DNA from: Eledone cirrhosa
Lineage: Eukaryota
Assembly (NCBI GenBank): GCA_964016885.1
Contig: OZ024744.1
Coordinates: forward strand, 41,478,001-41,542,000
Direction of reading: 5' to 3'
DNA: 64,000 bases
A program made the translations under genes and the position numbers. The notes beneath the pieces were generated by a model. It was given only the letters and a program-made list of their open reading frames with translations, had not been told where the DNA came from and did no database searches. Positions 24,361 to 62,735 of this stretch are shown here, one piece after another (positions within the stretch are counted from its first letter, which is position 1; each line of letters starts with the position of its first letter).

Positions 24361-26877
24361 CTAAAGAAGAAATTAAAAGATGGTTAAAAGAGTTCCATAT
24401 ATTTTATTATGCTCATTTCGAATACAAAATCATCCTGGGACAAAATTTGTGTTTCCATCAGATAAAATAAGGTAACATATGAGGCATAATAGCACTTGTT
24501 AGGAAAGTGCTAAGTCTACATATGACAGAAATATAAGTGTTAATACTATAGTAAGAAATAGATAGGAAAATAGAGGAAAGGAAAGAAAAGGAGAAAAAGG
24601 AAAAAGAAAGAGAAGAAAAAAAGAAGAAAAAAAGGGAGAGAGAGAAAGAGTGAGAGAGACTTTTGATCAGGAATGGTGTCAAAATGAAAACAGCTGTAAA
24701 TAACGGTTAAAAAGTAAATTGATGAGGTGTATGTGCGAATATTATAGACGGTATTCAAATATTAGAGGCCTAAATATAGAAACTGGGTATATTATTTTAT
24801 ATTGGGTTTAAATACTAAAAATTGGATTAAGAAGTGTAAAAATATATTAATAAAATAAAATAATTATAAATATAAAAAAGATTTTTATAAAACAAAATAA
24901 AAATAGTCAAAATTAATCATTTCTAGTAAAAATCTATATATGTGGGGTATACTGTTTAATTATTATTTTATATAAACAAGTAATAAAGGAAATTGCTAGA
25001 AAGATTTATAAACCTAGAAAAATCTATGACGTCATCATTTGTTTACAAAATCTACGAAGGTTTGAACGAAAATTTAAGGCTATAGAAAAAAGGTCAAAGG
25101 CTTAATATATGCTGAGAAAACCAAATTAATACATTGTAGAATATAATGAAAGATGACCGTGATTCGTGGAGTATGTTATAGGACATCAGCTATATACTTT
25201 GTGAAAGGTGTTGTAGGATTTATGATTACAAAATCCAAATAAATCGGTTCTTCGATTTATTATTGGTTGAAATTCGAGATAATGGTAAATTTTTCAACTA
25301 GACATAAATTACAAACATTAGATATGGAAGCATTGGAGTATGTAGAAGAATGATTATAGAATCTTGCTTTAAAAGAGGTAGAAGTAGAGCCAATGTAGGT
25401 GTAGGTGTTGGTACTAGTTACCACTTTACATTCGTATACTAGGTTTTTATCGCGACAGAAATTACTAAGAGGACAATTGTTCTATTAGGGCAGTTGCATT
25501 TACGATTAAGATTATTTACAGTGTTATTTGCAAGTGGCCCAGGATTAATTATATTAGGATCTGGAGTGATGGAATTAACTAAAGGAGGTGATAAAGTTTC
25601 CAGATTTACATTACTATTTGATGTATTCCTCAAAGTTACGTTTGACGTCGTATTTATACTTGTGTTATTTTGCCTAGAGTTTACATTGACGTCGGGCCTT
25701 ATAGTGTTATTATTATGACTCTCATGGTTGGATGTATATGAGTCATTATTTAATAATTATGTCTTGAGATAATTTTAGAAATGTTCGAAGTAGTAGAATA
25801 CGAGAATGTAATAGTATGCCTATTGAAAATCTTGCTATATATATGTGAAGGAGGGAAGCTGTTATGTAAGGCCCTAAAAAGTAATTTAGGGATATTATTA
25901 ATAACGGCAAGAGAGAAGGGAGCTGTATCAAAGGATATTTTTATATCTAGGTCTCCTTTTGTTAGCAGTATGATTATTACTAGCTACATTACTAGAGTTA
26001 TTATAAACTCTGCCAAGATTAAGTTCTTTAGTATACCTAATTTTGACTAGATATCCAGCTCTAGATAGGGCATTATTATAATAGATGGCATTAGCTTCGA
26101 AGATATCTTTATTAGAGGATAAATTAGAAATTCTTTTTTCTACACTTTTGACTATAGCAGTTTTAACATTATTAGGGTGGTTAGATTTAAAGTTAATGTA
26201 ATTTAAGTTCTCGTTATCCTTATGATATGGGTAATATAGGCCGGTATCTAGATTAAGGAAATTTGCTAGTTTAACATTATTCTCGAATTCAATTTTTAAG
26301 TTAAGATGCTTAAATAGATCAAGTATAATTTTCTTAATTATATTAAAGTTTACATTGTTACAATTAGAGACAGTTTCTATATTTAGGCCTCTAATATTTG
26401 AATACCGTCTATAATATTCGCACATACACCTCATCAATTTACTTTTTAACCGTTATTTACAGCTGTTTTCATTTTGACAGCATTCCTGATCAAAAGTCTT
26501 TCTCTCTTCCTTTTTTCCTCTCTTTTCTTCTCTTTCTTTTTCCTTTTTCTCCTTTTCTTTCCTTTCCTCTATTTTTCTACCTATTTCTTACTATAGTATT
26601 AATACTTATATTTCAGTCATATTTAGACTTAGCACTTTCCTATAAACAAGTGCTATTATGCCTCATATCATGTTACCTTATTTCATCTGAAGAGAACACA
26701 ATTTTTGTCCCAGGATGATTTTGTATTCGAAATGCGCATAATAAAATATATGGAACTCTTTTAACCATCTTTTAATTTCTTCTTTATTATATATACTCCA
26801 GTTCTACCAACTGTTGAGTGCTACTTATCTGATATATGCATAGTTTTATTGTTCTACAATATTACTCACCTTCTACA
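24361..26877 (-). mobile_element. 5'-truncated Penelope-like element (Naiad/Neptune-type) with inverted pseudo-LTRs
   Basis: ~420-bp inverted arms at 24361-24787 and 26371-26787. Internal minus-strand remnants: RT thumb (YYPYHKDNENLNYINFKSNHP..KSVEKRISNLSS..ALSRAGY), Cys linker CNCPNRT/CPLSNFC, GIY-YIG LVYECKV..YIGSTSTSFKARFYNH, and CNLCL. Both ends abut (TA)n. Confidence 0.92.
26680..26747 (+). ncRNA. Type I hammerhead ribozyme in the PLE pseudo-LTR (mutated twin at 24401-24468, minus strand)
   Basis: atttcat-CTGAAGA-gaacacaa...ttgtattc-GAAA-TGCGCA-TA-ataaaat. Palindromic stem III ATGCGCAT. Confidence 0.8.
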
Positions 26878-29800
26878 TATATATATATATATGCATATAT
26901 ATGCACATATGTAGATATATATATATACATATATGCACATATATAGATATATATACATATGTATATACATATACATATGTATATATATACACACATATAC
27001 ATTCCTGCATACATATACGCATTATGTAAATATAAATGCAATGTAATAACATGATGTTGAAGATGTAGATAAAAATATATTTGTAATAAAAAAAATGATG
27101 TGATTCTTCTTTGACATATTTATTTTGCTTTAGTGCTTATATTTGAGATGAAAAGCATATATTTTTCAAAATTGGAGCGTACATTTTATGTCGAAATATC
27201 TGATATTTATTAAAAAATGAGAAATTAACACTGAATACTATTCGCCATCCCCCTCCAAATAAATTTTGTTATGAGATAGTTATATTTGTTATAAAATCTA
27301 TTTGAAAATTCCATGGAGACGTAAAAGCAAAAATATTAATTTCTAACATGACGGTTTCAATAAAATTCTCATGGAATACTTTTTTCTTTTCACCATTATT
27401 ATTGAAAAGACAATGAAGCTGTGCATTAAAATGTTTTTAAAAAAAAAACATAATAGATTAACCTTTTTATTGAAAGACACTGCCTATGATTTTCAAATAA
27501 TTTTGAAAATAATTAAGAATTTAGAGGAATTTAGTAATGAGTATATAGCATAATAAAGCTTCTTTCATACAATTATAATGGAAGCATTTTAGATAAATAT
27601 AAGCATCATTAAAAAATAGTTTTCTTTCATAAGGCCAGTGAGTTTCTGGTAGTTTATTATTAAAAGGGTTAAAGTGTAGGGCAATTGTTCTTTTTTTATG
27701 ATCTTTGGGGGATGCAGATAACATAAATATCTTTACATGATCCATAGTTCAATGGCATTTTTATTTACAATAATAATAATAATAATAATAATATCAACAA
27801 CAAAAATAATAAAAAAGAAAAGGAAACAAAAGAAAAATAATAGAAAATATAGAGAAAAAAGGAGTAAAAGAAAGAAAAAAGAATGGGAAGGGGAGGGGGT
27901 GGAAAGAACGCTGGTGTCCAGAAGAGAGGAGGGGGTGAAGGGGAGGGTGATTGGGCTTTGGGCCTAGGGTAAGGGGGTAGAAGGGCTGTGCCCCGCGGAC
28001 AAGACCGCAAAAGATAGCAGTAAAATTTATCATTATTATACACTGATTTATTCAGATTACTGTCCTTGTCTTGGTTGTATTTGTAACAATGTTTCAGCTG
28101 TTATACCCTTCTTCAGGTGCCTGTGGTATTTACTAATATTGTTAACCACTTTTTATTTTTATTTCTATTGCTACTGCTGCTATTCTTATTACTATATAAT
28201 GAACCTGATTGAGCAGACCTATGACGAAAAGTGTTCCAGTCATGACCATCCTAACTTTTGAATATTAAGGACAATATTGTCCTTCTTTATCTAATGTGAA
28301 AATGCATGTCTTGGTGGCTAGGGTGTTCAGCTCACAACTATAAGGTTGTGAGTTCAATCCCTAGCAGTATGTTGTCTCCTTGAGCAAAACACTTTAATTC
28401 CCATTGCCCCAGTTCACTCAATTGAAAAAAAAGGAGTTTTATCTGTAATTCAAAGGGCCAGTCTGGTTACACAGTTGCCAAACTGAATTTCCATGAAAAT
28501 TACCTTCTGGAATACTCAGCCATTATCAGTAGGTTGTTCATCCAATTGATCAAACAACTTGAAAACTGATCATTGGAAGTAATTGGGGTCCAATACAACA
28601 CACAACACTGTTTCTAGCCTGATAGGTTGCAATTTGAAGGAAATGTAGCTGCTATTTCAAAGAGATACACTGACATTTCTAAAACAGGGCTAGAGATCAT
28701 TTTGGTATCATTGTTGAATTTCAAATGCAATAAGAATACCTGTGCTCCATAATAATGCAACTTATATTAAATTATTATTTAGTTTAGTTGTATTTTGTCT
28801 TATTTTTTTATATTGGATTTTAGTAATTTTCTAAGAGGAGGGTTTCTGAGTTGCACATAGGTGAAATTTATCCATGGGTAACAGGTTCTTTATATCTTAT
28901 CTTGGGCGGTTGACTAAACCCATCACCTAATGTAACACAACCATTTGGCTCTTTTAGCAGGGTCCACTCTGTTGCAATCATTCAGACCAGGCCTCTTATA
29001 CAAGGATATCTTTTTTTCTCCCCTTCCATTAGTTTCAGAAGCCCTTAAATGGGCCATAGCCACCATCCTTCCCTCTCTGACAAAATAAAAAGAAAAAATC
29101 AAGAGAATTCTTCATTGGTTTAAGCTTCATCTTTTTTTTTTATCAACAGGTGTCATGTAAAAGCTACTGGGATTGAACCCACAGCCCCCTGTTCCAAATT
29201 CCAGCAGTAAATATCGGACATGTAGCACAATATATGAATTAATTTAAGTGATATTTAGACTAATTTTCAGTAATAACATTCATAATAGGTAAAACTCAAT
29301 ACTAAGTTTACTGGTTGGGGTCTCAGTTTGTATGGATGTAGACATGGCCAAATAGTTGGGAAGTCTCCTTCACAATCATGAGACTCCAGGCTCAATTCTA
29401 TTGTGTGGCATGATGGGCAAGTGCCTTTAACATAGCCTTGGGTCAACCCAAGCCTTGAAAACAAAATTAGGTAGATGGAAGCTATGTAAAATTTATCAGA
29501 TAGATTGGACCTGTAATTTGCTTGAGGTGCTGTGGAATATAAAAATGAAAAGCGGGTATGTTTAGGAAGCCGTTACAATGCTGGTGGGTTTGAAATACCA
29601 AGGCAACAATTGAGAGAGCTGAGATAGAATGCAAAGAGTAGAAGCAGGAGGAAAATAAAAGGATAAGAAAAACATATTGTTATCTTAGTAATTAATTAGT
29701 CCCAGTATTTGGGGTTTACCATCCATTATCAACGGGGAACCAGAGTGGGGAAAAAACTCAAAGATATCAAAGATTGTCTTTCCTGGTTGTTGTTTATAAA

Positions 29801-62370: not shown

Positions 62371-62389
62371 TATATATATATATATATAT

Positions 62390-62735
62390 ATAGAATAGAA
62401 AACGAAAAATCAGTGATGCATATGAACTCAATTTATTGTGTGTTACAATTGTTTCACCGGCAGACAGCTCGAGATGTGATCATTGTGTGGATCTGTCTGA
62501 TTCTAGACCCGCAGGTTCGATGGACACGTCTAATGATTTCGGAGCATATTCTCTCTTGTGAGATCCACACAATGATCATGTCTCGAGCTGTCCGCTGGCG
62601 AAACAATTGTAACACAATAAATTGAGTTCAGATGCATCACTGATTTTTCGTTTTCTATTCTATCATACTCTGCTCTGTAAGAGCAAAGAGTGCTCAACCG
62701 ACATACCGCCTATGGAAGCATCTTAGTTACCATCA
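62390..62735. repeat. Foldback element, ~105-bp arms with half-hammerhead GAAACAATTGTA, plus a one-sided ~70-nt tail
   Basis: 62390-62494 pairs with 62561-62663; extra sequence 62664-62735 precedes (TA)n. Confidence 0.85.

Follow-up and report, generated by a model that had tools for sequence, protein, structure and literature searches.

How do inverted repeats with two different ends come to lie, again and again, in the (TA)n tracts of one genome? The question is raised by a 64,000-nucleotide stretch of the 3.0-Gb, AT-rich genome of Eledone cirrhosa (assembly GCA_964016885.1, contig OZ024744.1, forward-strand positions 41,478,001 to 41,542,000; hereafter the window), which contains foldbacks whose two arms point their 3' ends outward and of which one arm carries an extra terminal tail. 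An initial annotation had ascribed them to reverse transcription from both ends of a break, one cDNA starting at the RNA end and the other at an internal AU-rich site. Our analysis largely confirms the observation. The foldbacks belong to Hydra-clade Penelope-like elements (PLEs) and to hammerhead-bearing, non-autonomous passengers, and are not miniature inverted-repeat transposable elements (MITEs). One long and one short end are paired in nearly every insertion, and the structures probably arise by two-ended target-primed reverse transcription, a separate complementary DNA (cDNA) being primed from either side of a single cut.

Arms and ends of the window elements

The window was examined by self-BLAST together with Rfam, pattern and Pfam searches. 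All the foldbacks named in the initial annotation were recovered by self-BLAST, along with further ones. The elements of families A and B are laid out as follows.

24353..26374, minus strand: family A left arm, a 5'-truncated, frameshifted Hydra-type PLE running from the reverse transcriptase (RT) thumb to the GIY-YIG domain and then the 3' pseudo-long terminal repeat (pLTR), recognised by inverted match and protein identity
26371..26877, plus strand: family A right arm, with pLTR, hammerhead core 26687-26732, short site at ~26795, 82-nt tail and long end
26795..26819, plus strand: bulged hairpin RCUC-stem-loop-UU-GAGY at the tail start of the family A right arm
30701..31594, minus strand: family B left arm, 1.9 copies of a retrozyme-like 466-nt tandem hammerhead unit, with long end and 73-nt tail 30701-30773
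31590..32485, plus strand: family B right arm, 1.9 units, with short end at unit position 393

The family A left arm ends at the short site within (TA)n, and over 151 aa its RT portion matches the intact 800-aa family protein with 62% identity. Its arms (24353-24785/26371-26795) are 92% identical by self-BLAST, overlap by 4 nt at 26371-26374 and are not nested; the tail (26796-26877) extends 82 nt beyond the short end, or ~90 nt if the common TTATTATA is included. The arms of the family B foldback are 96% identical (30774-32485) and have in common the AATTT at 31590-31594 that had been put forward as a microhomology. Every 466-nt unit of this element carries a type I hammerhead, matched by Rfam as HH9 at E 3e-6, which is below the gathering score.

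The left arm had been placed on the minus and the right arm on the plus strand, with which the hammerhead cores at 30701-32486, 26687, 61703 and 48533 agree. The extra tails are likewise real, and measure 26796-26877, 30701-30773, 61809-61890, 62664-62736, 40673-40730 and 15546-15588. A tail sits on the left arm as often as on the right.

Pairing of long and short ends

Family B was sampled in two sets. The first came from a unit search, in which the best 40 of 671 candidates were scored and 150 rows listed, grouped into 38 loci including that of the window; the second comprised the first 42 of 1,908 exact long-end matches, minus one already in the first set and the segmental duplicate L095, giving 40 elements. 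Genome-wide pattern counts of 1,908 long and 115 short ends are not comparable, the short pattern being subfamily-specific. Sixty-four of the 78 elements are same-family foldbacks, all with the minus arm on the left and the plus arm on the right, and they divide into 54 long+short and 10 long+other (26 and 7 in the first set, 28 and 3 in the second), with no long+long and no short+short. The long end falls at unit position 464-466 and the short end at 392-398, while inner ends are scattered over the whole unit. One of the 10 long+other elements reaches the short site via a 10-nt jump, and another is an array that exceeded the fetched span. Inspection by eye of the remaining 14 elements gave two long+short pairs with short arms of 8-12 nt, one short+aberrant, three whose second arm belongs to another family, one ambiguous case (L096) and seven single-armed insertions.

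Autonomous PLEs were collected by a protein search with 42,508 first-look candidates, of which the best 135 were scored and 20 loci picked by open reading frame (ORF). They comprise 15 long+short, one long+aberrant, three single-armed and one short+short locus; the full ORF lies in the long arm in 8, in the short arm in 5 and in both in 2. The first family B set and these ORF-picked loci form a sample not selected by ends, in which 41 of 42 foldbacks with two canonical ends are long+short (p 2e-11 against an independent 50:50 choice).

The same pairing recurs in the other families. Family H (19 loci) yielded 10 long+short, no long+long and no short+short, with no end assignment for the other 9, and family F (24 loci) yielded 13 long+short and one complex locus, 10 likewise giving no assignment. 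Among 29 family A loci, 6 are long+short, one is long+long and 22 lacked a second arm in the span scanned, 4 of which showed short ends once the span was extended. By eye, 9 of 25 family B2 loci are long+short and two long+long. Families D (24/24) and G (22/24, one reclassified by eye) are also long+short, their loci having been selected with both arms in the query. The long site lies 45-105 nt 3' of the short AU-rich site. The long+short pairing is thus a strong rule, though not an absolute one, and the expectation of fixed outer ends, variable inner junctions and outward 3' ends holds genome-wide.

The tail allows the start sites to be placed on the RNA. In family B arrays the long site reads on into the next unit, and in autonomous PLEs the tail of ~90 nt reads on, in internal pLTRs, into the ORF leader. 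Both start sites are therefore internal, and the notion that one of them is the RNA end fails.

Some features of family B arrays deserve mention in their own right. Retrozyme arrays with 12-20 or more units per arm were seen at L044, L057, L072 and L098; variants in L044 recur with period 4, and the unit type matched by its long arm is not that of the outer unit of its short arm. L106 is a single-armed insertion between copies of a ~50-bp duplication. Arm 5' ends fall within 6 nt after the predicted hammerhead cut in 5 of 124 cases, against 1.6 expected (p 0.02, with the interval chosen post hoc), and in none of 124 within the 12 nt before it, which is a weak hint that self-cleaved or circular RNA may be involved.

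The autonomous element and its passengers

Family A includes an intact young PLE with many copies, whose single 800-aa ORF (P0001) encodes an RT with a YRDD motif followed by a C-terminal GIY-YIG domain. The latter was matched by Pfam at E 0.004, below the cut-off, and no Pfam RT match to P0001 was obtained. DKT is present in place of DKG, and RWK reads RWT, RWK being kept in several of 21 homologues; the CxCX5C linker, CxxC and CxH motifs are present and CCHH is absent. The family A pLTR contains a hammerhead core by pattern, a predicted ribozyme, and its ends lie in (TA)n. Judged by these motifs, the family is a Hydra-clade PLE. A search of the PDB returned nothing relevant, and a homodimer prediction for RT residues 1-490, run without an alignment, gave no verdict (score 0.00). 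Residues ~575-660 form an asparagine-rich insert between the RT and the CxCX5C linker; N-rich inserts have been described in rotifer Penelope elements (PMC3846280).

Families B and B2 are composed of non-coding tandem units with a type I hammerhead in each, and by this sequence organization are like retrozymes of the non-LTR kind.

Junctions, target sites and mixed insertions

The microhomology expected where the two cDNAs join is indeed enriched over random joins. Of 64 family B junctions, 48 have no inserted bases, and among these an overlap of at least 1 nt occurs in 39 (48% for random joins), of at least 2 nt in 21 (19% by chance) and of at least 3 nt in 14 (8% by chance). The parser scored the other 16 as insertions, 4 of them being tiny arms that it mis-scored. 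Flank duplications of at least 7 nt are found in 14 of 32 informative flank pairs, compared with 16% of mismatched pairs, and the clean target duplications (L048, L047, L050, L037, L058) measure 8-13 bp.

A few insertions combine two families (L066, L054, L031). One arm of L066 starts at the long end of family B and continues as PLE RT sequence, while the short site of the PLE forms the end of the other arm; two RNA species therefore entered one insertion. The second arms of L054 and L031 are read as PLE from a motif-like reading frame, the tail hairpin and their mutual similarity, and tblastn of these arms against P0001 did not confirm coding homology.

A conserved hairpin in the tail

A hairpin of the form RCUC-stem-loop-bulge-GAGY lies at most ~12 nt 3' of the short end in families A, C, D, E, G and H, and also occurs in two more families in which the short end is unmapped. 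Strict matches in the window number 14 against a shuffled mean of 4.3, and 10 of the 14 represent eight distinct tails. Across nine window copies, double changes are seen at 4 of 7 hairpin pairs. The hairpin is present in 23/29 A, 20/24 D, 16/24 G and 10/16 H copies and was not found in B, B2 or F tails. It is a candidate protein-binding element.

Proposed mechanism and alternatives

In the two-ended reaction that we consider likely, the GIY-YIG nuclease would cut (TA)n in a staggered fashion, leaving 3' overhangs of ~8-12 nt. Each 3' end would pair with RNA over 1-4 nt, the short site serving one end and the long site the other, as dictated by an asymmetric complex that sits in the tail. The two cDNAs would halt at variable points and be joined by short microhomology or templated fill-in. 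In most insertions a single donor lineage would supply the arms, and in some they would derive from two different RNAs; either one RNA would be read twice or two RNAs used. If the 3' overhangs of a staggered cut were each primed, both the 8-13 bp duplications and the outward 3' ends would follow. The earlier suggestion that each side of one site primes a cDNA thus survives as the likely reading, without its RNA-end part.

Several observations weigh against this mechanism. Long+long exceptions exist (L302 and L313 in B2, L122 in A), as does a short+short PLE locus (L283), whose flanks are mirrored as well, and a single arm is found in about one in six family B insertions and 3/20 autonomous PLE loci. 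Overlap is lacking at 9/48 junctions, and 12 further junctions have inserted bases. Arm pairs are nested in 40/54 cases in family B, which self-priming would also give. Duplication calls inside (TA)n are noisy, and no contig bridging an empty site was found among the contigs of four runs at L048 and window 61250-63100, where the flanks are repeats. In addition, no strand difference in start site is reported for a related enzyme by Frangieh et al. 2024 (PMC11167929), whose account does not extend to pairing per molecule.

Among the alternatives, twin priming of the L1 type on one multimeric RNA, with the first cDNA stopping where the second began, fares best, though we regard it as improbable. 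In L1 twin priming both target sides prime, the 3' ends point outward and the junction shows microhomology; the arms represent separate stretches of a single RNA, with starts at the poly(A) and at a variable site. Here, unlike in that scheme, the arms overlap and both starts are fixed. Arms that share a subfamily, donors that are tandem or have two pLTRs, and breaks at the long site in L286 and L297 all accord with twin priming. Inner ends, however, fall at the partner's start in only 2/50 and 2/50 cases, with 2.0 expected for each, so that there is no pile-up, and mixed-family arms would require a second RNA or a template jump.

Slightly less probable still is self-priming, in which a single cDNA or antisense RNA snaps back and copies itself into an inverted arm, as has been proposed for inverted PLE copies (PMC3846280). 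Besides the nesting of most arm pairs, it is favoured by short snap-back pieces at the junctions of L075, L083 and L088 and at several family D centres, and by 22 locus-private variants carried on both arms at 11 loci, which indicate a common donor lineage for the arms. Gene conversion could add to such shared variants, and 137 private variants occur on one arm only. Self-priming fails as a general route because 14/54 arm pairs are non-nested in either direction and because arms of different families are combined; moreover, a perfect hairpin centre is seen in only 1/64, and in monomeric copies such as window element A the longer, short-ended arm has no tail.

True MITEs, or master foldbacks copied as whole units, are very unlikely as the main source. 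In family D, the two closest of 276 pairs have a junction in common but differ in their flanks, and 3/25 B2 loci have the junction of the window element. Against this, family D centres form 23 distinct strings among 25, and six tested junction-sharing G copies are no closer than average. Nor do the elements resemble MITEs: in place of symmetric terminal inverted repeats, the ends are asymmetric in all families tallied; internal junctions vary, a small minority being shared; readable duplications are 8-12 bp or longer rather than TA dinucleotides, most sites being unreadable inside (TA)n; and the sequence is that of PLE pLTRs or retrozymes. This route is refuted as the main one and may hold for a small minority. 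A single mechanism for the MITE-like palindromes, as initially envisaged, would not extend to the minority that share junctions and were seemingly re-copied whole.

The least credible origin is an artefact of assembly, or an inverted duplication that arose later at (TA)n cruciforms. It is suggested by the perfect mirror at L283 including its flanks and by a few tail-to-tail mirrors spanning (TA)n (L053, L096, window 55301-55584). Against it, the arms differ by 1-20%, have different fixed end sites and unrelated flanks at nearly all loci, and in short-read contigs from other runs identical family ends are seen next to (TA)n.

Beyond two-ended priming itself, we tentatively suggest a more specific model, to which we give somewhat less than even weight. 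PLE integration may be an obligately asymmetric two-ended reaction, in which a complex on the tail hairpin would place RTs just 5' of the hairpin and 45-105 nt 3' of it, could load two RNAs and would also insert retrozyme arrays, thereby generating a large class of MITE-like palindromes.

Further elements of the window

The remaining foldbacks assigned to families in the window, two of which (29990..30210 and 61949..62370) were absent from the initial annotation, are as follows, none being assigned to a single strand.

15546..15721: miniature foldback of family G, with the tail on the left and a core of hammerhead type on the plus arm
29990..30210: G-like foldback, tail right, hairpin at 30124
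40673..41060: family B2 (~430-nt hammerhead unit) foldback, long end left, 57-nt tail 40673-40730, short end right
46045..46236: foldback of family F, with its short end on the left and a 55-nt tail on the right, hammerhead core in family copies, without the RCUC/GAGY hairpin
48461..48752: remnant of family E, in which the minus arm has a hammerhead core (48533-48492) and lacks its outer end, and the plus arm has a tail
61588..61890: miniature foldback resembling family A, with its short end on the left, a plus-strand hammerhead (61703-61749), tail 61809-61890, hairpin at 61808
61949..62370: family H foldback, long end left, tail 61949-62048, hairpin at 62044 (minus), short end right
62390..62736: foldback of family D, with its short end on the left, a tail (62664-62736), a hairpin at 62667 and a degenerate ribozyme

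In self-BLAST, the inverted matches span 15588-15721 for family G (tail 15546-15588, the family tail continuing ~15 nt further), 40730-41067 for B2, 61580-61820 for the A-like miniature and 62390-62663 for family D. The B2 element has no ribozyme of its own, and its polarity was taken from family copies; its left flank is an (ATG)n tail and not the TA-rich sequence previously described. The polarity given to 62390-62735 rested on a ribozyme of which no intact core exists in the window or the commonest family variants; it is instead indicated by a degenerate GAAACAATTGT motif and the tail hairpin. At 48462-48697 the assigned polarity stands, whereas the right end is at 48752 and the left arm has lost its outer end and adjoins another element.

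Other foldbacks, apparently with one-sided tails, occur at 15745-15925, 15941-16199, 32667-32972 and 48075-48354, several of them crowding shared (TA)n tracts. That at 33060-34155 has a 105-nt PLE-type tail on the left; its centre consists of (TA)n, the 3' end of a LINE and ~290 nt of unrelated sequence, possibly captured DNA. Tail-to-tail mirrors with (TA)n at the centre, the opposite of the main geometry, are found at 55301-55584, L053:1311-1545 and L096; both ends of the L053 mirror stop at the predicted hammerhead cut, and L096 was dropped as a mixed long+long case, as it belongs to its mirror. The window also contains an open LINE frame of 957 aa (57440-60313, plus) with AP endonuclease, RT and an inserted PHD finger, degenerate relatives of which lie at 788-3542 and 34727-36064; a Mariner-like transposase fragment with a Mos1-type helix-turn-helix (21954-22628, plus); and a 200-nt SINE-like repeat in clustered direct and inverted copies (16517-17574 and 4235-4665). 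Rfam microRNA matches were discarded as low-complexity noise.

Comparison with known systems

The geometry, the tail, the (TA)n bias and two internal start sites are already published (Craig et al. 2021, PMC8557442; Arkhipova et al. 2013, PMC3846280; Frangieh et al. 2024, PMC11167929). Insertions of endonuclease-containing (EN+) PLEs comprise an inverted 5'-truncated copy and a one-sided tail (PMC8557442, Fig. 2; PMC3846280), and share with the present elements head-to-head arms, partial tandems, a tail confined to one side, insertion into (TA)n, duplications of 8-10 bp and 5'-junction microhomology. Their tails are 30-40 nt, as opposed to 45-105 nt here, and the shape is called 'often' present or 'optional' in these papers, which invoke nuclease resolution or self-priming, whereas the one-long/one-short arrangement is counted here as a near rule. 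Hydra-clade PLEs have a C-terminal GIY-YIG, DKT, CxCX5C, CxxC and CxH, no CCHH, a hammerhead and (TA)n targeting (PMC8557442, section 11); family A differs in having RWT for RWK, a unit of ~3.9 kb rather than generally under 3 kb, and a very high copy number.

In vitro, PAc (Poseidon, Anolis carolinensis) cleaves AT-rich DNA on both strands and extends each of them, the tail is delimited by two internal start sites, and a dimer is predicted (PMC11167929). PAc belongs to another clade, and the main text of that study contains no per-insertion pairing of sites and no shared tail hairpin, and leaves the inverted structure unexplained; its Fig. S2 maps genomic ends and may bear on the novelty of the pairing rule. 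For animal non-LTR retrozymes, dependence on PLEs has been proposed (Cervera and de la Pena 2020, PMC7229834; Li et al. 2026, bioRxiv 10.64898/2026.07.22.740005). Like these, families B and B2 consist of tandem 430-466-nt units with a type I hammerhead in each; inverted two-arm arrays with fixed long and short ends and PLE-coding chimeras were not found in the consulted passages of these papers, the word 'inverted' occurring 0 times in PMC7229834. In a literature search that reached few subscription papers, no long/short pairing count, two-ended priming model for PLEs, tail hairpin or extension of the pairing rule to retrozyme arrays was found.

The origin of the inverted pLTRs and the one-sided tail is stated as open by Craig et al. 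(PMC8557442) and Frangieh et al. (PMC11167929). A young family with ~1,900 exact long ends turns the qualitative picture of PLEs into a testable rule; it also speaks against self-priming, links retrozyme arrays to the PLE machinery, supplies a candidate cis-element and cautions that PLE palindromes can be misfiled as MITEs. What is added to the known PLE shape is quantitative and mechanistic.

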